A program made the translations under genes and the position numbers. From IMG/VR virus record IMGVR_UViG_2660238585_000005: DNA of 64,000 bases; one strand, written 5' to 3'. The number at the start of each line of letters is the position of its first letter. Within the stretch, counting starts at the first letter, position 1. The DNA is from an uncultured virus (IMG/VR IMGVR_UViG_2660238585_000005) (taxonomy: Duplodnaviria; Heunggongvirae; Uroviricota; Caudoviricetes). A model generated the notes under the pieces. The model did no database searches. It was not told the origin of the DNA and saw only the letters and a program-made list of their open reading frames with translations. Below, piece by piece: positions 3,853 to 62,915 of this stretch.

Positions 3853-4635
3853 TTAAATTAATTTTAAATATTTAGAATTTACATATCCAAGACCTTTATT
3901 ACCTTTAAATCCTTCTATACTTACCCATCTATTTAGACAATATTGTAAATTCACTATATCTCCATATTTAACTTGTCCTATAATCTCATATTCTGTCCCT
4001 CTATCCCATCTAACATTTAATACATCTGCAATTACTTTAGCTTTTCTTCCAGAATAATCACCATTTGTAAATCCTTCAGTATTAGTTTCAGTGTCAGTGT
4101 CCTTCCATTCAACTGAATTAAATTTGCATATTCCTTTTGCTATAGCTTTAGCAAACTTATCTTTATTGTTCATTATTAAATTATAGTCTTCCTCATTAGT
4201 TATAAATCCTAACTCAACTAAACATGCATCCATATTAGTTTCTCTTATAACATGTAAGTTACCCTCTTTGACACCTCTATTTTTAGTGTATAGTCCTTCT
4301 TTAATAATTTCAGAATGTATAGCATCAGCCAAAGCTCTATATTTGAATTTATAACAATAAGTTTCTAAACCTTGAGCATTAGGATTGTCTACACTATTAC
4401 AATGTATAGATACAAATGAATTTACACCTAGGCTATTAGCTTTACTACTTCTTTCGCTTAGAGTTAAAAATATATCAGTATTTCTAGTATTTATATTTTT
4501 TATATCTTGTGTTTTTAAATAATCGCTTACTTTATTTGCAACTTCTAAAACTATATCTTTCTCTAAGCATCCAGCTACTCCTATAGCTCCTGAATCATGT
4601 CCTCCATGTCCTGCGTCTGTCATATTTGTTCTCAT
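3853..4635 (-). CDS. Endolysin: Amidase_3 N-acetylmuramoyl-L-alanine amidase + SH3b domain
   Basis: DAGHGGHD, EKD, SIHCN, LVELGFITN; C-terminal LNVR..G motif. Confidence 0.95.
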   Translation of the reverse strand: MRTNMTDAGHGGHDSGAIGVAGCLEKDIVLEVANKVSDYLKTQDIKNINTRNTDIFLTLSERSSKANSLGVNSFVSIHCNSVDNPNAQGLETYCYKFKYRALADAIHSEIIKEGLYTKNRGVKEGNLHVIRETNMDACLVELGFITNEEDYNLIMNNKDKFAKAIAKGICKFNSVEWKDTDTETNTEGFTNGDYSGRKAKVIADVLNVRWDRGTEYEIIGQVKYGDIVNLQYCLNRWVSIEGFKGNKGLGYVNSKYLKLI

Positions 4636-10810: not shown

Positions 10811-13800
10811 TTACCTCCTTCTTCTCATTGTATTTAAAGCAAGTCTATTTGAAACTCTTGGAACTACAACTCTATCTATTTCTTCTCCTTCAATACTAAT
10901 AGGTATTATAATATCTCCACTAGAATCACCTTTATTTTTCATCATAGAGTTTATAACCCCTTGAGCAGTTTGTCTTGCAGTTTCTAAAACCATTTGCTCA
11001 CTTGATTCATGATTATATACCTTCGTTCCACTTGGTAAATCATATAACTCATATCCTCTTTCATGAAGATATGTTAAACCACCTTCAAAGTGTGATGTAC
11101 CTGTCCAGTGTTCTCCAGGCTTTTTACCATGACTTTGGAAGAATGTATTTACAAAGAAGTTTTTAACTAGACTTCCCCATCCACTATTCCATGCATCTTT
11201 TAATTTATCCCATTTACTTTTAACTTTACCAGTTGTAGTATCTACATCTTTTGTAATATCTGAGTTCATAGAAGTTATTTCCTTAACTGCTTTATCTCTT
11301 GTTTCTTTAGCTGCACTTATAGTATCATCTCTTTGTTTCTTTGCATCTTCTATACATCTTTCAGCTTGTTCTTTAGTTAATGAATGGCTTTCATCTCGTT
11401 GTCTTATTAACTCAGCTATTCTGTCATCACATTCTTTATTAGCTGCCTCAATAGCTTTATCTCTAGAGTTATTTAATTCCTTTATATGCTTAGAAGCCAT
11501 ATCGGCAGTTATATTTTTATCATTATCTTTCATTCTTTCAAGAATTACCTTAGCTTCAACTTCATTATCAGATAAAGTTTTTATAGCAGTAGTTTTCATA
11601 TCTTCTTTAATTTGCTTAATATCTTGTAACTCTTGATTACTAACTTGTCTATGCTCTTCAGCTGCTTTAGCATAAATAGCATTAATTTTATTTTGAGCTT
11701 CATCAACTTGTTGCTTTTCTTTAGTCCAATAACTTTTTGTTTTTTCTAGTGCAACTTTCTTTTCTTCATCTGTAAGGGCATTAGTTTTAGCAAAGAAATC
11801 TTTTTGACTTTTTAAATCTGCATCTCTTTTTTTGTCCATACCATCTTTAATTTTATTAGCCATATCCGTATAAACTTTTTGCATTTCTTGAGATTGTTGT
11901 TTTGATAACCCTACACTTTTAGTTAATGTATCTTTAAAATCTTGTATAGTTTGATCCTTTTGTCTTTGAGTTAATCCTTTAGTCCCATTAACCATTGCAG
12001 TATATTGTTTTATTATCTCATTTTTATTTTTACTAGTTAAAACTCCAGTATCAGAAACTAATTTTTTAAAGTCTACAGTCATTCTTTCTCTTTGATCCTT
12101 AGATAAACTACTCGATTTTTTACTCATTTCTGTAAAGTTTTTAACTACAGTATCTTTTGCTTCTTTTGAGAATTTATTTGAGTTCATTCTTAAATTCATC
12201 ATTGACTCACTAGCTTTTTTATCTAAATCTAAGTAAGCTTGTACATTATCTTTTGTTGCTTTAGATATTTTAATTACATCTTTTTCTGTAGCTTGTGCAT
12301 AGTTTCCAAACTTATCTCTTGAAACTTCAACTTTATCTGCAAATAAATCTACCGCAGGTGTTGCACTTGAATTTAAGTGTTCTGCAACTTTATATCCTGC
12401 ATATCCAACGGCAGCTACTGCAGCTACACCTAATGCAATTGGTCCTAGTGAGGCTATAACTGTTGCACCAAATCCAGCCCCAGCAACTTCTGCTCCTGCT
12501 AATCCAGCTCCCGCAGCTTCTGCAGCTGGACCAAGTCCTAATAGTATTTTAGAAAAGTCTTTAAATGTAGCAGCGGCTTTTAATGCTTTAAACTTTCCAA
12601 CAGTTCCAATTAATCCACCTATACCACTAGATACATGACCTAAACCACTTGTTAAAGGCCCTATAGCAATAGCAGCTAATCCTGCCTTAACTATAAATTC
12701 TTGAGTATGTGGACTTAAATTGCTAAAGCTAGTTGCTAATTTAGTGATATCTTTAGCAACACTTGTTATAGCTGGAGCTAATGCTTGGAAAGTTTTTATT
12801 GCTGCACCTTCTAGAGCACTTTTCATTTCTGCTAAACTACCCTTTGCATTTTCACTCATAGTTTTAGCCATTTTAGCAGTAGCACCTTCACTGTTGTCTA
12901 TAGCATTTGCTAATTTATCAAAATCTCCTTCACTAGCATTTATAATTGAAAGCCATCCAGACATTGCTTCTTTACCAAAGATAGTTGCAACTGCACTAGC
13001 TTGAGTAGCTTCATCTAAACCACCCATTTTTTCTCTAAGGTCAGACATTACTGCTCTAAAGCTTTTCATCTTACCGTCACTATTTTCTACAGATATTCCA
13101 TACTTCTCCATCATATCAGCCATACTATCCGTAGGCTTTACTAAGTTAGTTAATCCTGCTCTTAAAGCAGTACCAGCTTGGCTTGCTTTAATACCACTAT
13201 TAGCCATTAATCCTATAGCTAAAGAAGTATCTTGAACACTATATCCTAAAGCACCGGCTACAGGAGCTGCATATTTAAAAGTTTCTCCCATCATACCAAC
13301 ATTAGTATTGGCATTAGATGAAGCAGCAGCTAAAACGTCACTAAACATACCAGCATCTTTAGCTTTTAATCCAAATCCTGTTAATGCATCTGTAACAATA
13401 TCAGAAGTTGACCCTAATTCTTCTCCAGAAGCAATTGCTAAATTTAGTATAGGTTCTATACCTTCGAGCATATCACCAGTTTTCCAACCAGCCATTGCCA
13501 TATACTCCATACCTTCTCCTGCTTCTGCAGCACTAAATTTAGTTTTAGCTCCCATTTCTTGAGCCTTATTTTCTAATTGTTTAAGGTCATCACCAGTAGC
13601 ACCAGAAATAGCTGCTACTTTATCCATTTGAGCCTCATATTCCATACCTACATGAGCGGCGGCTACCCCTATTCCTGTTAAAGGTAACGAAACATGAGTA
13701 GTAAGTTTTCCACCTATCTCTTGAGCTTTACTACCTACTTTTTTAAAGTTATTTCCTAAATCTTCAAGCTTTTTAGATGCATTACCTACACCATGAGTAT

Positions 13801-24800: not shown

Positions 24801-25484
24801 CTATTTTTTTATTGGTTCATTGAAAGAAGGCGGATTAATATCTATCTTTGTATTATGATTGTTAGGTCCCGGACTAGATAAGTCAAAGTATAGTTTAGAG
24901 TCTTCAGTAACTCCAAAGTCTCTATTTGAACCTGTATCTTTAATCTTATTTAATGCATCTCTAAATAAAGCATTATGAGCTTCTTCTCTGTTAAGTAAGA
25001 AGTCTATTGTTTCTCTTACATATTTATCGTCAATTTGTCTATATAAATATTCATATACAACTTTTGCTCTTTGCTCTGATGCTATATTTGATAATAGATC
25101 TGCAACTAAGTCTCCTGTTACAGTAACATAATCAGCAGTCCAAGGTGCTCCTGAAGAGTTTATTAAAAATGGTGATAATCCACTTAATACATGAGTTTCT
25201 ATTTCTCCAGAATCAACTGCTTTATAATCAACATCATGTCCATTTAATAAATTTATTGTTTGAGCAACCATTTCCATATGGCTAAGTTCTTCCGCTGCTA
25301 TATCTAGAAATAAATCTTTTATCTCTTTATCTTTTATTCTAAAGCTTTGAGATAAATATTGCATTGCTGCTTTTAACTCTCCATTTCCTCCTCCTAATTG
25401 CTCTTGCATTAAAACTGCATATTGAGGATTTGGTCTTTCTACTTTTACTTCTCTTAACAATTTTTTATCATGTTTAAACATCAA
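24801..25484 (-). CDS. Manganese catalase family protein
   Basis: EQLGGGNGELKAAMQY, EELSHMEM, REEAH metal ligands. Confidence 0.92.
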   Translation of the reverse strand: MMFKHDKKLLREVKVERPNPQYAVLMQEQLGGGNGELKAAMQYLSQSFRIKDKEIKDLFLDIAAEELSHMEMVAQTINLLNGHDVDYKAVDSGEIETHVLSGLSPFLINSSGAPWTADYVTVTGDLVADLLSNIASEQRAKVVYEYLYRQIDDKYVRETIDFLLNREEAHNALFRDALNKIKDTGSNRDFGVTEDSKLYFDLSSPGPNNHNTKIDINPPSFNEPIKK

Positions 25485-25748: not shown

Positions 25749-26297
25749 TTAAAAATATCTAAAGCTAGTATAAGCTTTATTCATTCTGTCTTGGTCTATA
25801 CCTATATAATGTAAGGTTACAGCTGGAGATGAATGATTAAATATCTTCTGAAGTAATGCTATATCTTTGGTTTGCTTATAGTAATGATATCCCCATGTTT
25901 TTCTCATACTATGAGTTCCTAAACAAGGAACATCGAATAATTCTCCCAACTCTTTTAAAATTACATATGCCCTTTCTCTAGAGATAGGCCTATTATAGTT
26001 TTTACGTGATTTAATTAAAAAATCATCAGGATCCTTGTCCTCTACATAATCTTTAATTGCTCTTTTCAGTATTGGGTTTATCTCTATGAATTTTTGTTTC
26101 CCTGTTTTCTTTTCTCTTAAGACTATTTGCCTTTTATCTTTTACATCATATATCCTAAGCTTCAATATATCTGATACTCTAAGACCTGTATATATACCCA
26201 TCATAAATAGAAGGTAGTCTCTTTCATTTGTCTTTTTTAAATATGAACACATATTTTCTAATGTATCTAAATTTCTAATAGGTTCTACATAGTTCAT
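25749..26297 (-). CDS. Small tyrosine recombinase (catalytic domain only)
   Basis: TGLRVSD, HSMRKT, FNHSS, LHYIG. Confidence 0.92.
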   Translation of the reverse strand: MNYVEPIRNLDTLENMCSYLKKTNERDYLLFMMGIYTGLRVSDILKLRIYDVKDKRQIVLREKKTGKQKFIEINPILKRAIKDYVEDKDPDDFLIKSRKNYNRPISRERAYVILKELGELFDVPCLGTHSMRKTWGYHYYKQTKDIALLQKIFNHSSPAVTLHYIGIDQDRMNKAYTSFRYF

Positions 26298-26419: not shown

Positions 26420-26546
26420 AGTTTATACTCCATACCGCTACAGAGTGCTCTTAAGAGCCGTAAAGTTATATTGGTGAGGGTTAAAGGGAATCGAACCTCT
26501 TATCTTCTAAATAAATAGCTATTTTGCCATTAAACTATATCCTCAC
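26420..26546 (-). ncRNA. Conserved late-leader RNA: tRNA-like cloverleaf + boxA-like motif + GCGG hairpin (copy 1)
   Basis: GAGGATA-TA-GTTTAATGG...GGTTCGATTCC...CCTCACCA then CGGCTCTT and ACTCTGTA-GCGG-TATGGAGT; homolog at 57050-57180. Confidence 0.65.
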
Positions 26547-30589: not shown

Positions 30590-30856
30590 CTAAGCTCCTT
30601 GTTTATCGTTATATTCTTTAATCGCTATTTCTTTAGCTTCTTCATAACTCAAACCAGTTTCTTCTAACTCCTTTGTTCTAATCCATATTGGGTAAGCTAT
30701 ACTCAATGCTTCATCCCCATATTTTTCTCTTTGTCTATCAAGTATCCATTTAGCTTTTCTTCTTTCTATTTCCTCAATCCAATATGGATCTTCTGGGTAA
30801 ACTACCTCAACTTTTATTTCTCTGCTTTTTCTTGGTGCCATTGCAACCACCCCCAC
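30590..30856 (-). CDS. Small early protein, candidate recombination directionality factor (likely start ATG 30841)
   Basis: Beta strand-Pro-helix pattern, position after cro/antirepressor, sporulation-type promoter; function is inference. Confidence 0.55.
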   Translation of the reverse strand: MGVVAMAPRKSREIKVEVVYPEDPYWIEEIERRKAKWILDRQREKYGDEALSIAYPIWIRTKELEETGLSYEEAKEIAIKEYNDKQGA

Positions 30857-30859
30857 TAA

Positions 30860-30889
30860 ATTTTATGTTTATTAAAAATTGTCCTATGC
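30860..30889 (-). promoter_or_regulatory. sigmaE-like promoter with embedded SpoIIID-consensus site
   Basis: GCATA-N17-CATAAAAT; TAGGACAATT fits WWRRACARnY; same motif at 62886-62915. Confidence 0.65.
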
Positions 30890-34899: not shown

Positions 34900-36492
34900 A
34901 TGGTTGCTGCTATATACTCAAGAAAATCAAAGTTCACAGGAAAGGGTGAATCTATAGAAAACCAAATACAGCTTTGCATGGACTATGCTAAGAACATAGG
35001 AATTAATGAATTTTTAGTATATGAAGATGAAGGTTTCTCTGGTAAATCTATGGATAGACCAAAGTTTAAAGAAATGCTTAAAGATGCTAAAGATAAAAAA
35101 TTTGATTATTTAATATGTTATAGATTAGATAGAATATCCCGTAATGTTTCTGACTTCTCTACTCTTATAGAAGATCTAAATAAGCTTAATATATCTTTCG
35201 TATCAATTAAAGAACAATTTGATACTAGTACTCCTATGGGACGTGCTATGATGTATATATCATCTGTATTTGCTCAGTTAGAACGAGAAACTATAGCTGA
35301 GCGTGTTAGAGATAACATGTATGAGTTAGCTAGAACAGGAAGATGGCTAGGAGGTATGCCTCCATATGGTTTTATTAGTACTCAAATTAACTACTATGAT
35401 GAAAATATGAACCAAAGAAAAATGTATAAACTTAAAGTTGATGAAGATACAATAGAAATTGTTAAATTGATATTTGATAAATATTTAGAGCTTAGATCAC
35501 TTTCAAAACTTTATAAATATATGTATGAGAATGGAATTAAAGGAACTCGTGGAGGTAACCTTGATCCTAGTGCCTTATCTTTAATCCTAAAAAATCCAGC
35601 ATATGTTAAAGCTGATAAAAGTGTAGTTGATTATCTAAGAAAGTCTAATATAGATGTTATGGGAGATATAGACAATATACATGGTATCCTAACTTATGCT
35701 AAAAATACAGATAGTCCTATAGCTGCTGTTGCTAAACATAAAGGTGTTATAGATTCTGATAAATGGATTGAAGCACAAAGGCTACTTAATGCAAATAAGG
35801 CTAAAGCTCCTAGAGCTGGAACTGGAAGTAAGGCATTATTATCAGGTCTTTTAAAATGTTCTAAGTGTAGCTCTAATATGAGAATTACTTATAAAAACTC
35901 TAAAAGCGGCACTATCTATTATTACATATGTGGAACAAAGAAATCTTTAGGAGTATCAGCTTGTGATTGTAAAAATATCAGATCTGATAAGGCTGAGTCT
36001 AAAGTTATAGATGAATTAAAAAATAAAAGTATTAAATCTATAATGTCAAGTTATAAAGATAGCAAGTTAGAAAACTCTAAGAATATTAAAAATATAAAAA
36101 CTGAGATAAACTCAATAAATAATCAAATTAAAGAAAAAGAAACATACATTGATAATTTAGTTATGCAATTAGCCAAGGTTACCGAAAGCTCTGCATCTAC
36201 TTTTATAATCAATAAGTTAGAATCTTTAAATAATGACTTATCTAATTTAAAATCACAATTAGAATCTTTAAATACTATGTCTATGGAAAATAAGCAAGTT
36301 GATATTAATATAAATATGCTTATAGATAATTTAAATAAATTTAATAAAGAAATTGATACCTCTGATATTAATAAGAAGAGACTGTTACTATCTACAGTAG
36401 TAGATTACATGACATGGGACTCTGATACAGACACAATAAAAGTAAACCTAATAGGTATCAATCCAAGCAATACTATAGCTTCAGATAAATAG
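34900..36492 (+). CDS. Large serine recombinase (integrase of prophage 1)
   Basis: YSRKS catalytic Ser, RLDRISRN, PPYGF, Zn ribbon CSKC..YYIC..C, coiled coil. Confidence 0.96.
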   Translation: MVAAIYSRKSKFTGKGESIENQIQLCMDYAKNIGINEFLVYEDEGFSGKSMDRPKFKEMLKDAKDKKFDYLICYRLDRISRNVSDFSTLIEDLNKLNISFVSIKEQFDTSTPMGRAMMYISSVFAQLERETIAERVRDNMYELARTGRWLGGMPPYGFISTQINYYDENMNQRKMYKLKVDEDTIEIVKLIFDKYLELRSLSKLYKYMYENGIKGTRGGNLDPSALSLILKNPAYVKADKSVVDYLRKSNIDVMGDIDNIHGILTYAKNTDSPIAAVAKHKGVIDSDKWIEAQRLLNANKAKAPRAGTGSKALLSGLLKCSKCSSNMRITYKNSKSGTIYYYICGTKKSLGVSACDCKNIRSDKAESKVIDELKNKSIKSIMSSYKDSKLENSKNIKNIKTEINSINNQIKEKETYIDNLVMQLAKVTESSASTFIINKLESLNNDLSNLKSQLESLNTMSMENKQVDININMLIDNLNKFNKEIDTSDINKKRLLLSTVVDYMTWDSDTDTIKVNLIGINPSNTIASDK

Positions 36493-36535
36493 GAACTTTA
36501 ATACATTTATCTGAAGCTATTTCTATGTCAGATAA
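36475..36535. other. Prophage 1 right junction (att) region
   Basis: Perfect 16-bp inverted repeat 36475-36490/36505-36520, third TCAGATAA at 36528; host ATPase frame resumes at ~36507. Confidence 0.75.
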
Positions 36536-36698
36536 GGTCGCAGTTTTATCCAAACGTCCTGCATCTATAAAAAGTATCTATACTATAGATTTAAAAATAT
36601 CAGAAACTAGAACTCCTATAATATCAAGAAGTGCTGAAAATTTTAAAGACTATTTTAATATCTTGTGGAAGGAGATTGATTCTAGTGAAACAAAATAA
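36507..36698 (+). pseudogene. 3' fragment of NitT/TauT-family ABC ATPase (YtlC-like), split by prophage 1
   Basis: Hand translation LSEAISMSDKVAVLSKRPASIKSIYTIDL...YFNILWKEIDSSETK*, the segment that follows the THD H-loop. Confidence 0.88.
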
Positions 36699-37488
36699 TG
36701 TATCACAAGGTCATAAACAATATTTAAAATCGCTAAAAAAAGAAAAGAATCTAATCTTTTTTTATCAAATATTTATATTGGTTGGATTTATAGCTCTTTG
36801 GGAATTACTTGCTAGACTTAATATAATAGATGTATTTCTATTTAGCAAACCTAGTGATATTTACAATCTTTTTATAAAATATATTCAAAATGGAGAATTA
36901 TTTAAGCATATATTAATATCTAGCTATGAGACAATAGTTGGATTAGCAGTTGGTACAATTCTTGGAATATTAGTAGCTATAATGCTTTGGTGGTCAGAAA
37001 GATTATCTAAAATACTTGATCCATTTTTGGTTGTACTAAATGCACTTCCTAAAACAGCATTAGCACCAATTTTAATAGTTTGGGCTGGAGCTGGTGTAAA
37101 TGGAATAATAGTTATAGCTATTACTATATCTGTTGTTGTTACTATATTATCCGCCTATAATTATTTTATAAGTGTTGATGAGGAAAAAGTCAAAATGCTT
37201 AAAAGTTTTGGAGCATCAAAACTTCAAATTCTTACAAAATTAATATTTCCTTCTAACATAGGAAATTTAATAAATTTAACTAAAATTAATATAGGTATGG
37301 CTTGGGTTGGCGTAATAGTAGGTGAATTCTTAGTATCTAGATATGGACTTGGGTACTTAATAGTTTATGGTGGCCAAGTTTTCAAATTAGATTTAGTAAT
37401 GATGGGAGTAATAGTATTAGCCCTTTGTGCTTTAATTATGTATCAAGTTTTAAATATAGCAGAAAAAATTTATAAAAGTAAAAGATAA
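36685..37488 (+). CDS. NitT/TauT-family ABC permease (YtlD-like); GTG start after GGAG
   Basis: LNALPKTALAPILIVW, AWVGVIVGEFL, GLGYLI. Confidence 0.92.
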   Translation: MKQNNVSQGHKQYLKSLKKEKNLIFFYQIFILVGFIALWELLARLNIIDVFLFSKPSDIYNLFIKYIQNGELFKHILISSYETIVGLAVGTILGILVAIMLWWSERLSKILDPFLVVLNALPKTALAPILIVWAGAGVNGIIVIAITISVVVTILSAYNYFISVDEEKVKMLKSFGASKLQILTKLIFPSNIGNLINLTKINIGMAWVGVIVGEFLVSRYGLGYLIVYGGQVFKLDLVMMGVIVLALCALIMYQVLNIAEKIYKSKR

Positions 37489-37505
37489 AATTTAATATAA
37501 AAACA

Positions 37506-37557
37506 AAATAACTGAGTTCAAGTTTATTATAAACAGGCTTGAGCTCAGTTATTTTTT
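37506..37557. terminator. Bidirectional terminator between permease and nitroreductase
   Basis: AAATAACTGAGTTCAAG...CTTGAGCTCAGTTATTT. Confidence 0.8.
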
Positions 37558-38368
37558 ATATATTACAATATCCTATTATTTCATAATCTGTTGGTACGTC
37601 ATAATTTCTATTACCGTTTTCTAAAGTCCATTTTAAATCAAACATAGTTGTATCAATTATTAATGAAAAGTATAGCATAACTATCCCTACATCAACTTTA
37701 CCTTCATACTCACTTGCAAATTCATCTTTTCTTACTGCAAGAATCACTTTGCCTCCATCAATTATAAATCTCCAAGGTTGTCTATTTAATGTAGATGGTG
37801 CCATTCTAGCAAAACTAAATGCATCTAATAATCCTCTTTCTTCTAATAATTCTATGGTTGCATTTTCTCCCCATTTATCTATATAAACTATCTTTTCTAC
37901 ACCTAATCTAGATGAATCACCAGTAGCTGATTTAGTTTTTACAGTATCTCCATAACCTAGTGCAATAATTGCTGTAACTTCCTTATCTGATAAAATTTCA
38001 AGCTTTTCTTTTATAAGCGAACTCTCTTTAAAGGTAACCCAACATGAGTCGATTCCTAAGTCCATGGCCTTTAGAGTTAAGTTTTCTCCTATATATCCTG
38101 AATTTTCTATGTATCCTTTATCTGTATCAGATAAAATGATTACATAGTTTGGTGCTTCTATCATATGTCCATTATATCCTGCTATTTTATCAAGTTTTGG
38201 ATACAATTTATCTTTATTAAAAACTTTAATTTCAGTCCTTATTTCTGGTACAAGTTTTTTAGACATATTTATATATTCTTCTATTATTCTGAAATCTGAT
38301 TTTTTTATTTCTTGATTTTTAAATTTCCTTACTGACCTTTTATTGGATATAAGATATTTGTAATTCAT
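37556..38368 (-). CDS. Nitroreductase-family protein (host)
   Basis: KRSVRKF, GIDSCWV, APSTLNRQPWRF. Confidence 0.9.
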   Translation of the reverse strand: MNYKYLISNKRSVRKFKNQEIKKSDFRIIEEYINMSKKLVPEIRTEIKVFNKDKLYPKLDKIAGYNGHMIEAPNYVIILSDTDKGYIENSGYIGENLTLKAMDLGIDSCWVTFKESSLIKEKLEILSDKEVTAIIALGYGDTVKTKSATGDSSRLGVEKIVYIDKWGENATIELLEERGLLDAFSFARMAPSTLNRQPWRFIIDGGKVILAVRKDEFASEYEGKVDVGIVMLYFSLIIDTTMFDLKWTLENGNRNYDVPTDYEIIGYCNI

Positions 38369-38489
38369 AATTTCCCCTCCCTAAAGTTATATTAAATTTT
38401 ATTTTATATTTTTTATACCCAAAATCAACACAAAGCAAACATTTTCCTGATAACTATAGTATTTTTACAAATATCTAAAATGGTTTTAT

Positions 38490-38518
38490 CACCAATCAAT
38501 TTATTTTTTAATAATATA
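38490..38518 (+). promoter_or_regulatory. sigmaK-like mother-cell promoter of the substrate-binding gene
   Basis: CACC-N16-AATAATATA versus CACM-N16-CATAnnnTA. Confidence 0.5.
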
Positions 38519-38539
38519 CATTATCTTTAATTTTAAGGG

Positions 38540-39097
38540 GTGATTTTTTTGCTAAAAAAATTAATAATATTAATAACTTTAATTACTAGCCTATCTTTGC
38601 TTCTCATTGGATGTACTCCTAAATCTCAAAGTATTAAATCTAAAAATTTAAATAAGCTAACTGTTGCAGAGGTAACCCATTCAGTATTTTATGCTCCACA
38701 ATATGCAGCTATAACTCAAGGTTTTTTTGAGGAAGAGGGCATTGAGTTAGACCTTATAAATACTCAGGGAGCAGATAAAACAATGGCTGCACTTCTTTCT
38801 GGAGAAGCAGATATAGGCCTTATGGGACCAGAAGCATCTATTTATGTATATAATAAAGGGAATTCAAATTATGCAGTAAATTTTGCGCAATTAACTCAAA
38901 AAGATGGAAGCTTTTTAGTTGCTCGTGAAAATACTGATAGTTTTTCTTTTGAGGATTTAAAAGGTAAAGAGGTTTTAGGTGGTAGAAAAGGTGGGGTTCC
39001 TGAAATGACATTAGAGTATGTTATGAAAAAAAATGGTCTAACTATAGGAACTGGTACTCAAAACGGTAAAGTAAATGTTAGAACCGATATTCAATAA
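38540..39097 (+). pseudogene. 5' part of NMT1/SsuA-type ABC substrate-binding lipoprotein (YtlA-like), truncated by prophage 2
   Basis: Lipobox LIGC, EVTHSVFYAPQY, GGRKGGVPEM; stops at 185 aa, about half the family length, where phage DNA begins. Confidence 0.88.
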
Positions 39098-39117
39098 TCA
39101 GTTTTATTATAACAGTT
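39073..39117. other. Prophage 2 attL with serine-integrase geometry
   Basis: AACCGAT/ATCAGTT around central CA (39092-39093); outer AAATGTTA/TAACAGTT lie 11 and 16 bp from the centre. Confidence 0.7.
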
Positions 39118-39290: not shown

Positions 39291-40067
39291 TTATACTAAT
39301 TCAAGATACTTAGAGCTAACATATCCTAAACCCTTATTACCATCAAACCCTTCTATACTTATCCATCCATTTAAACAATACTGTAAATTCACTATATCTC
39401 CATATTTAACTTGTCCTATTACCTCATATTCTGTACCTCTATCCCATCTAACATTTAACACATCTGCAATTACCCTAGCTTTTCTTCCTGAGTAATCTCC
39501 ATTTGTAAATCCTTCGTCTACAATTCCAGTTTCCTTCCATTCAACTGAATTAAATTTACAAATTCCTTTTGCTATAGCTTTAGCAAATTTATCTTTATTG
39601 TTCATTATTAAATTATAGTCTTCCTCATTGGTTATGAATCCTAACTCAACTAAACAAGCATCCATCTTAGTCTCTCTAACTACGTGTAGGTTACCTTCCT
39701 TTACACCTCTATTTTTAGTGTAAAGACCTTCTTGTATTAACTCTGAGTGTATAGTGTCTGCTAAAGCTCTATATGCAAATTTATAGCAATAAGTTTCTAC
39801 CCCTTGAGCACTTGGATTGTCAGAGCTGTTACAGTGTATTGATACAAATGAGTTTACCCCTAATTTATTAGCTTCATTAGTTCTATCATTTAACGTCACA
39901 AATACATCTGTAGTTCTAGTATTTAAATTTTCTATATTTTGATTTTTTAAGTACTTAGCTACTCTATTAGATACATCTAATACTATATCCTTTTCTAAGC
40001 ATCCATGTACTCCTGGTGCTCCCGAATCATATCCTCCATGTCCTGGATCTGTCATATTTTTTCTCAT
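39291..40067 (-). CDS. Endolysin: Amidase_3 + SH3b (close paralog of 3853-4635)
   Basis: DPGHGGYD, SIHCN, LVELGFITN. Confidence 0.95.
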   Translation of the reverse strand: MRKNMTDPGHGGYDSGAPGVHGCLEKDIVLDVSNRVAKYLKNQNIENLNTRTTDVFVTLNDRTNEANKLGVNSFVSIHCNSSDNPSAQGVETYCYKFAYRALADTIHSELIQEGLYTKNRGVKEGNLHVVRETKMDACLVELGFITNEEDYNLIMNNKDKFAKAIAKGICKFNSVEWKETGIVDEGFTNGDYSGRKARVIADVLNVRWDRGTEYEVIGQVKYGDIVNLQYCLNGWISIEGFDGNKGLGYVSSKYLELV

Positions 40068-57049: not shown

Positions 57050-57180
57050 AGTTTATACTCCATACCGCTATAGAGTTCTCAAAGAGCCGTAAAGTTATAA
57101 TATTTGATGAGAATATATGGTTTCGAACCATATTCTACTAATAAATTTAGCTGTTTTCCCATATTAAACTATATCCTCAT
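57050..57180 (-). ncRNA. Conserved late-leader RNA: tRNA-like cloverleaf + boxA-like motif + GCGG hairpin (copy 2)
   Basis: Acceptor GAGGATA/TATTCTC, D arm GTTT/AAAC, T arm TATGG-TTCGAAA-CCATA, 5-nt anticodon loop; then CGGCTCTTTG and ACTCTATA-GCGG-TATGGAGT. Confidence 0.65.
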
Positions 57181-62684: not shown

Positions 62685-62864
62685 CTATTTTTTAGTAGCT
62701 AACTTACCTTCTTGGTATAACCTTTTTGCTATTCTATAATTAATCTTTGCTATTCTGTCAAGGATTGCCTGAATTTCTTCATCTGTTTGCTTTCTTCCAA
62801 GCCTCACTTCTGGAGAAATTATTTCTATTATCGCATTTTCAGTTTCTACCTTATAAATATCCAT
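62685..62864 (-). CDS. 59-aa protein MDIYKVETENAIIEIISPEVRLGRKQTDEEIQAILDRIAKINYRIAKRLYQEGKLATKK, candidate RDF
   Basis: Translated by hand; AAGGGGGG RBS; follows sigmaE/SpoIIID-like promoter. Confidence 0.65.
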   Translation of the reverse strand: MDIYKVETENAIIEIISPEVRLGRKQTDEEIQAILDRIAKINYRIAKRLYQEGKLATKK

Positions 62865-62885
62865 AATGTAATCCCCCCTTTATAA

Positions 62886-62915
62886 TTTATATGAATTATA
62901 AAAATTGTCCTATTC
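62886..62915 (-). promoter_or_regulatory. sigmaE-like promoter with embedded SpoIIID-consensus site
   Basis: GAATA-N17-CATATAAA with TAGGACAATT; matches 30860-30889. Confidence 0.62.

Follow-up and report, generated by a model that had tools for sequence, protein, structure and literature searches.

In the heterocysts of Anabaena, a terminal cell type, several programmed deletions (the nifD, fdxN and hupL elements) rebuild genes of one process. Here we describe a 64,000-nucleotide (nt) stretch of DNA from an uncultured virus (IMG/VR record IMGVR_UViG_2660238585_000005; hereafter the window, meaning the whole stretch that was analysed), in which two prophages interrupt ytlC and ytlA, the genes for the ATPase and the substrate-binding protein of one transporter. 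We consider it probable that this is double active lysogeny driven by one developmental signal, in which both genes would be rebuilt by prophage excision during sporulation. The Anabaena elements differ from these two in being cyanobacterial, non-phage and experimentally proven, and in relying partly on tyrosine recombinases.

The mechanism class itself is already known from skin, SPbeta, phi3T and yin. In B. subtilis, SPbeta sits in spsM and phi3T in kamA (PMC4191935, PMC6957869), and the likeness to the window is that an intact temperate phage occupies a mother-cell gene, with a large serine recombinase (LSR) at the prophage end; moreover, the sites in spsM and kamA too are separated by a few genes. 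Two promoters serve sprB of SPbeta, one responding to stress and one of sigmaE/K type (PMC6957869), and a small recombination directionality factor (RDF) with its own sigmaE/K promoter beside lytic control is the layout that we also find for the candidates below. Unlike SPbeta and phi3T, the two prophages described here occupy two subunits of one complex, both in one genome; the target genes, recombinases and host family are other ones, and excision is here a prediction from sequence. The skinCd element of C. difficile (LSR CD1231, RDF CD1234; PMC5025042) likewise combines an LSR with a small sigmaE-controlled gene, and the CD1234 promoter has the shape RGACAA-N11-CATA in common with both RDF candidates of the window. 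However, the target of skinCd is sigK, a master regulator, and skin is a defective element. Lastly, yin in yabG of Clostridium botulinum V73 (PMC10747680) is an LSR prophage in a sigmaK-regulon gene of a clostridium, with a putative RDF behind a sporulation promoter; it is described from a single strain and a single site and is excised at all time points, whereas the sites in ytlC and ytlA are occupied repeatedly among the genomes of a family.

The host of the window is Paraclostridium sordellii: the proteins of G013, a prophage-free genome of the same species with 98% nt identity to the window over the transporter region, cluster under that species name. The GC content is 27.5%, and a 2.6-kb host segment is flanked by most of two back-to-back prophages. 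The features on which the argument turns are as follows.

3853 to 36514: prophage 1, a complete-looking siphovirus with an HK97-type head module and lysis, tail, capsid, portal, terminase, repressor and LSR genes
34900 to 36492, plus strand: LSR1, the LSR of prophage 1, 530 amino acids (aa), with Pfam resolvase, recombinase and Zn-ribbon domains
36490 to 36514, plus strand: attachment site attR1, made up of the phage arm (36490-36512) and the GA crossover core (36513-36514), placed by the junction relative to G013
36513 to 36698, plus strand: ytlC 3′ part (ATPase), 185 of 186 nt the same as in the intact G013 allele
36685 to 37488, plus strand: ytlD permease, intact, 267 aa, its start overlapping the ytlC end; Pfam BPD_transp_1
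38486 to 38523, plus strand: sigmaK-type promoter of ytlA, 26 of 38 positions as in the CD1891-type promoter at the orthologous position, with the same spacing
38540 to 39097, plus strand: ytlA 5′ half (NMT1/SsuA-like binding lipoprotein), ending at a stop made by the prophage arm
39092 to 39116, plus strand: attachment site attL2, CA core 39092-39093 (in a Gln codon) and phage arm
39092 to 64000: prophage 2, a complete-looking siphovirus with an SPP1-type portal, running off the right end of the window

An earlier interpretation made from the letters of the window without database searches (the sequence-only reading) had proposed that two different prophages split two genes of this transporter. 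The prophages are indeed different, with portals of HK97 type in prophage 1 and SPP1 type in prophage 2 and with LSRs that are 24% identical. An LSR at the element end and symmetric attachment (att) sites, the marks of active lysogeny, are found for both, LSR1 inside the window and LSR2 in the near-identical records G001 and G018, where it begins 476 nt past the window end. These two records are 99.5% identical to the right end of the window, and an IrrE-like gene is also present in the near-identical records of prophage 2. The window reaches neither the left end of prophage 1 (attL1) nor the ytlC 5′ half, and attR2, the ytlA 3′ half and the LSR of prophage 2 are likewise beyond it. LSR1 is an orthologue of the CD1905-type LSR of C. 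difficile (57-61% identity), and XisF is among the best NCBIfam matches of both LSRs, below the cut-off.

As had been proposed, the ATPase is left in the window as a 3′ fragment directly after LSR1. The open reading frame (ORF) at 36507-36698 corresponds to residues 188-250 of the intact 250-aa protein; G013 has both this ATPase and the binding protein whole. The attR1 core falls on a Glu codon just past the H-loop, and the GA core with its symmetric arms is common to 13 relatives. The ytlC 5′ half was not found anywhere in the window. Proteins of 196 aa that represent such 5′ halves make up 13 of the 15 members listed from the ATPase cluster (40 of its 49 members read), and 5 of 7 residues in the tail by which they read into the element are those predicted from the inverted attR1 arm of the window.

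The binding-protein gene also behaves as proposed, stopping at 185 aa (182 from TTG) where prophage 2 begins, compared with 344-349 aa in intact alleles. Up to the break at CAA (39092-39094), 178 of 182 residues are as in G013. The CA core is common to 11 relatives; an AA core was considered and rejected, with an arm symmetry of 4-7/23 as against 16-21/23 for CA in the 10 relatives with both arms readable. Moreover, we compared 20 same-species provirus loci with LSR1. Six stop short of ytlA and the remaining 14 are all broken at one identical nucleotide, with phage DNA that varies beyond the conserved arm; the provirus boundaries bias this set towards double lysogens. Because 14/14 loci share the nucleotide, and because elsewhere in the family too the splits fall at these two codons, the breaks are not a product of chance.

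The sequence-only reading had further expected the missing halves to exist and to rejoin in frame. The halves do exist as separate P. sordellii proteins, a 159-aa ytlA 3′ part being on record beside the 196-aa ytlC 5′ halves. As DNA of the same species, neither the ytlC 5′ half nor the ytlA 3′ half was found in viral contigs or in the terminal parts of four provirus records from this species; for the ytlC 5′ half, metagenomes gave none either among the matches listed. The window contains one half of each gene, and the excision frame test was run on relatives. In-silico excision at the GA core gave a ytlC of 250-253 aa in 13/13 genomes tested (4 of 17 outside the test), and at the CA core a ytlA of 346-352 aa in 11/11 (2 of 13 outside the test), so that the frame was restored in every case. 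At the ytlC site the outer inverted repeats match at 7-10 of 10 positions, and the attP arms are symmetric after in-silico excision. A whole YtlACD in this strain needs two independent precise excisions, as had been claimed.

Both sites are hot spots across the family Peptostreptococcaceae. The binding protein was matched in 79 of 112 family genomes, 13 of which have it as two halves split at the same codon. The ATPase was matched in 77, in 16 of them only as a 5′ half ending at residues 191-201; it is split in G040 too. All 8 Clostridioides genomes carry a ytlC element and 6 of the 8 additionally a ytlA element. In C. difficile the occupants of both sites are non-viral. Other combinations occur, namely neither element (G013), the ytlC element alone (G019, G024) and the ytlA element alone (G002, G009, G010). 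Therefore, with genomes that have neither or only one, we regard the double occupancy as independent insertions at two hot spots. Elements measure 4.3-39.5 kb at ytlC (11 cases) and 7.1-53.8 kb at ytlA (8 cases). The split halves are under purifying selection: the ratio of nonsynonymous to synonymous substitution rates (dN/dS) is 0.031-0.042 with no stops, and the first part of the permease comes to 0.059 (from 8 and 6 Clostridioides genomes; pooled, non-independent pairs).

What fills the ytlC site varies. In G004 and G019 the whole cluster for ethanolamine utilisation (eut) lies inside the element on the opposite strand, with EutA, B, C and H above cut-off in G004 (L114, G004:C1:2003500-2023499) and EutB in G019 (L293). 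In G022 and G023 the element is a 4.3-kb remnant with a prfC-type gene in place of eut, confirmed as prfC in G022. These non-phage 4.3-kb elements retain the LSR, a small ORF, the promoter of that ORF and near-perfect att arms. A different arrangement was seen at three loci, where a stranded ytlC 5′ half is followed by cargo and then by a second, whole ytlC (L209 of G097, 546-1157 and 11535-12302; L018, 2637-3248 and 9253-10008; L006, 6709-7052). The stranded half ends in an attL-like tail in G097 and L018, and no LSR was seen in L209; this looks like repair by duplication after the element had lost its recombinase. G097 also has a second, stranded ytlA 3′ copy that carries a stop at the core.

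The split genes are sporulation genes in C. difficile. In a sigK mutant the values given go down to 0.08 for CD1927 ('ytlC, fragment'), 0.13 for the permease CD1904 and 0.08 for CD1891 ('fragment, part 1') (PMC3789822), and a second study lists CD1904 as sigmaK-dependent at log2 -3.9 (PMC3738446). The stretch ahead of the split ATPase in 6/8 Clostridioides genomes is letter for letter the mapped sigmaK promoter of CD1927, and the stretch ahead of ytlA in G019 is that of CD1891. This identity links CD1927 and CD1891 with the split genes. Moreover, the sigmaK-like promoter that had been assigned to ytlA in the window holds, narrowly: 38486-38523 is the best window match to the G019 ytlA upstream sequence, at 26/38 with a runner-up at 25. 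It is through the C. difficile orthologues CD1927, CD1904 and CD1891, together with this conserved window promoter, that the elements are seen to split mother-cell genes. The genes ytlA, ytlC and ytlD are listed as sigmaK genes of B. subtilis (PMC3416734), and the tie of the split genes to B. subtilis YtlACD rests on the published name of CD1927, ytlC (PMC3789822). A sigmaK promoter of its own was considered for the permease and rejected: a loose sigmaK-like pattern had no match in the 420 nt upstream of ytlD in the window or in the 8 Clostridioides genomes. For CD1904 none is listed, the mapped promoter lying on the far side of the element, and the simplest reading would be that excision joins CD1904 to the CD1927 promoter.

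Each prophage has a small early gene that is a candidate for the factor which would direct excision.

30590 to 30841, minus strand: candidate RDF 1 of prophage 1, 83 aa, in the early operon after the antirepressor
30856 to 30889, minus strand: sigmaE-type internal promoter before candidate RDF 1, 29 of 34 positions as in the CD1884-type promoter taken from G004; no other site of the window scores as high
62685 to 62864, minus strand: candidate RDF 2 of prophage 2, 59 aa, directly after cro, a CD1884 homologue
62882 to 62915, minus strand: sigmaE-type internal promoter before candidate RDF 2, 27 of 34 positions as in the CD1884-type promoter, the second-best match in the window

Candidate 1 is homologous to a 56-58-aa ORF beside the LSR in the ytlC elements of 8/8 Clostridioides genomes (38% over 45 aa, pairwise E 6e-10), an ORF also kept in the 4.3-kb elements, and the promoter block upstream of the candidate is conserved ahead of its homologues. 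Candidate 2 matches CD1884 with a pairwise E of 6e-6 over 22 aa, a link bridged by proteins of G097 and G050. The CD1884 promoter stands ahead of a 93-aa ORF within the ytlA element of G004 and G020; it has been mapped as a sigmaE promoter (PMC3789822, Table S7), and CD1884 was sigmaE-dependent in two studies (0.11 in PMC3789822; log2 -6.3 in PMC3738446). When the window was scanned with the 34-nt CD1884-type promoter, the two sites listed above scored 29 and 27 and the next best 23. The CD1884 promoter and the block ahead of the candidates also resemble the mapped sigmaE promoter of CD1234, the proven RDF of skin (PMC5025042), in the shape RGACAA-N11-CATA. The short promoter pattern has 2 matches in the window as against 0.29 expected, the second of them independent of how the pattern was built. 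Promoter and small ORF recur together in the ytlA elements of G002, G010, G097, G050 and G107. They also occur in phage TPELB_ph1, which has an LSR with 48% identity to LSR1. Taken together, position, conservation and promoter mark both small ORFs as putative RDFs.

Neither candidate has a family in PHROGs, and the predicted fold of candidate 1, two helices, gave no PDB match at E 0.001. The small early ORFs of phages HM T and CP51 (LSR identity 46% and 40%) have no upstream promoter pattern. In one element region of G050 (L356, 4443 and 13414) the promoter and small ORF occur twice, with a third related ORF close by. CD1234-promoter-like sites with the candidates' motif were seen in L325 (G004:C1:1259452) and L327 (G022:C1:3348730), and an LSR adjoins the G004 site. 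Moreover, three AGGACAAG copies lie just past the two RDF candidates, and AGGACAA sites are found for example at window 62666, 30503 and 30447 on the minus strand; AGGACAA could be an antitermination or regulatory motif.

We propose the following course of events. Each prophage would integrate through its own LSR at a fixed codon, after the H-loop in ytlC and mid-gene in ytlA, leaving vegetative cells with only truncated, non-working subunits. In the mother cell, sigmaE would fire the internal promoter in each prophage and so express the small RDF gene only, with no lytic induction, and each LSR-RDF pair would then cut out its own element precisely. SigmaK would subsequently transcribe the rebuilt ytlC-ytlD operon and ytlA, giving an SsuA/NMT1-type importer late in sporulation, and the forespore would retain both prophages. 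The parts of this scheme that we infer are RDF function, promoter activity in P. sordellii, excision and the absence of lysis. For regulated mother-cell excision as such, the orthology to sigmaK targets, the purifying selection, the intact att arms and the RDF candidates behind predicted sigmaE-type promoters together allow a strong inference.

Several observations weigh against this reading. Four RNA-labelled runs (X1, X3, X7 and X10), which look non-sporulating, were mapped on the locus of Clostridioides G019. Among the matches listed, 3 of the 4 runs had no excised-type end at the ytlC site and 3 of the 4 had integrated-form ends at the ytlA site; X1, X3 and X7 gave attR ends there and X3 attL ends. 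X10 gave no reads, X3 was of flat, DNA-like depth, and the permease was barely covered in X1. The window's own missing gene halves were not found. The 10-12-kb ytlC islands of G101 (L203) and G103 (L205) have the same core and symmetric arms without an LSR or RDF candidate; LSR homologues are located elsewhere in both genomes and might excise the islands in trans. The short promoter pattern was built after site 1 had been seen, and 4 of 100 shuffles reach 2 matches; genome-wide, in 5 genomes, it has 14 matches as against 10 for a reversed control, and of these 14, 7 lie at the candidates and 2 are like the CD1234 promoter. AGGACAA by itself is frequent on the coding strand of the phages (13, as against 1 on the other strand). 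Moreover, the G081 element has an RDF homologue without a promoter match, and the RDF candidate of the ytlC element does not appear, under the tags searched, in the sporulation tables of PMC3789822 and PMC3738446. In X1 we also observed that the ytlA 3′ part is covered about 9-fold deeper than the 5′ part (L292 1014-1674), with reads entering from the element side, which reads as read-through from the LSR in apparently vegetative cells.

Some of these points would suit ordinary gene disruption, in which a dispensable conserved transporter is the target, lysogens simply live without it and excision occurs only on lytic induction. YtlACD has no assigned function, strains with zero, one and two elements coexist, and no excised junction is among the matches listed. 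However, the ytlC element is present in 8/8 Clostridioides genomes at a synonymous divergence (dS) of about 0.2, yet both halves have a dN/dS of 0.03; the 4.3-kb non-phage elements have kept their LSR, small ORF, promoter and near-perfect att arms; and G097 and L018 possess a second, whole ytlC besides the stranded 5′ half. Ordinary disruption is quite improbable in our view. Excision without developmental gating has a published precedent in yin, with heterogeneous excision at all time points (PMC10747680). Here it would mean that some cells of the population excise the elements, spontaneously at a low level or in stationary phase, and so supply the whole genes, with small ORFs that are not sigmaE-gated RDFs in P. 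sordellii, and it fits with the abundance of the AGGACAA part in these phages and with promoter activity in P. sordellii being a sequence prediction. CD1884 is nevertheless strictly sigmaE-dependent in the two studies cited, the full 34-nt match in the window is found only ahead of the two small ORFs, and the vegetative-looking runs show integrated ends; we judge ungated excision to be distinctly unlikely.

The halves might instead be expressed separately and complement each other as split proteins, with no need for excision. The ATPase 5′ half does keep every catalytic motif as far as the H-loop, an in-frame ATG is present in both 3′ parts, which are annotated as proteins, the ytlA 3′ part is the more deeply covered one in X1, and the islands of G101 and G103 manage without an internal LSR. 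Against this, neither a signal peptide nor a lipobox is present in the ytlA 3′ part, the codons from each core to the first ATG are conserved in frame, and att arms, LSRs and small ORFs would not need keeping, which renders split proteins barely credible. The remaining question concerns the two-key logic that the sequence-only reading had proposed. In a double lysogen both excisions are needed, and this much of it stands. A true coincidence switch, with different inputs or ordered excisions and with selection for the extra timing control, would accord with the presence of both elements in 6/8 Clostridioides genomes and in all 14 of the same-species loci that extend to ytlA, a biased set. However, both RDF candidates share one promoter type, the LSRs, cores and arms are independent between the sites, and element-free and single-element genomes exist; such a switch is unlikely. 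With one promoter type ahead of both RDF candidates, a single signal would suffice for the two sites. The locus therefore reads as two locks opened by one sigmaE signal and reached by independent insertions, rather than as a selected coincidence switch.

Our searches of the open literature gave no paper that treats ytlC or ytlA as attachment sites or reports excision there, none with eut as an excisable element and none with CD1884 as an RDF; subscription papers were outside this scope, and LSR catalogues may list the sites. CD1884 is listed as unknown in PMC12772354. CD630_19050 is labelled a putative SpoIVCA homologue (PMC3738446), CD1905 was tested in PMC2784873 for cwpV inversion only, and PMC5903667 deals with inversions only. 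In C. beijerinckii, tailocin prophages are inserted in an unnamed ATP-binding cassette (ABC) transporter gene (PMC10538166). As to the transporter itself, its family-model scores are all under the curated cut-offs of SsuA, SsuB, SsuC and Tau (for example SsuA_fam, 76.8 as against 163.5 bits), so it shares only a related fold with the SsuABC/TauABC sulfonate importers. The sole solved relative is 3qsl, and our guess at the substrate, made at family level, is a small solute of sulfonate or pyrimidine type.

The window has further features that stand apart from the two breaks.

37556 to 38368, minus strand: host gene of the nitroreductase family, lying between ytlD and ytlA; only part of the Paraclostridium species have it at this place

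The amidase-SH3 endolysins of the two otherwise unrelated prophages are about 80% identical (3853-4635 and 39291-40067) and their neighbours are related too, which may be a sign of module exchange. A 477-aa VanZ-family membrane protein is encoded at 1-1434, left of the prophage 1 lysis module; it scores under the vanZ resistance-model cut-offs, is absent at the equivalent place in the provirus ends compared and is probably prophage cargo. Prophage 1 also carries a CotJC-like manganese catalase (24801-25484) ahead of the packaging module, possibly a spore-coat cargo gene, and, besides the LSR, a 182-aa protein with a short tyrosine recombinase domain (25749-26297). A tRNA-Lys(TTT) lies in prophage 2 (57106-57179) and a weak tRNA-like remnant in prophage 1 (26476-26544); an Rfam search gave a weak tRNA match only.

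If the proposed excision is true, two genes are added to the short list of sporulation genes rebuilt by phage excision, and this would be an example of one complex that depends on a separate excision for each of two subunits. The physiological weight of this is limited by the unassigned substrate and importance of the transporter. The promoter signature offers a way of finding RDFs, proteins without a sequence family, and CD1884 and the ORF beside CD1905 become candidate directionality factors. We lean towards the view that the mother cells of Peptostreptococcaceae run multi-site programmed rearrangement, in which two so far unrecognised elements of C. difficile, besides skin, would be cut out under a shared sigmaE promoter type: a CD1905-type ytlC element with the whole eut cluster and a CD1882-type ytlA element with CD1884 as its RDF. 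P. sordellii, with its intact phages, would then represent the ancestral state, and one site shows a series from intact phage to 4-kb remnant. This predicts two further skin-like rearrangements in C. difficile, a pathogen studied in depth, where they would be hidden behind 'fragment' annotations. Moreover, it would place the eut cluster inside an excisable element, the eut island being a domesticated prophage site that may be deleted from the mother-cell chromosome at each sporulation.

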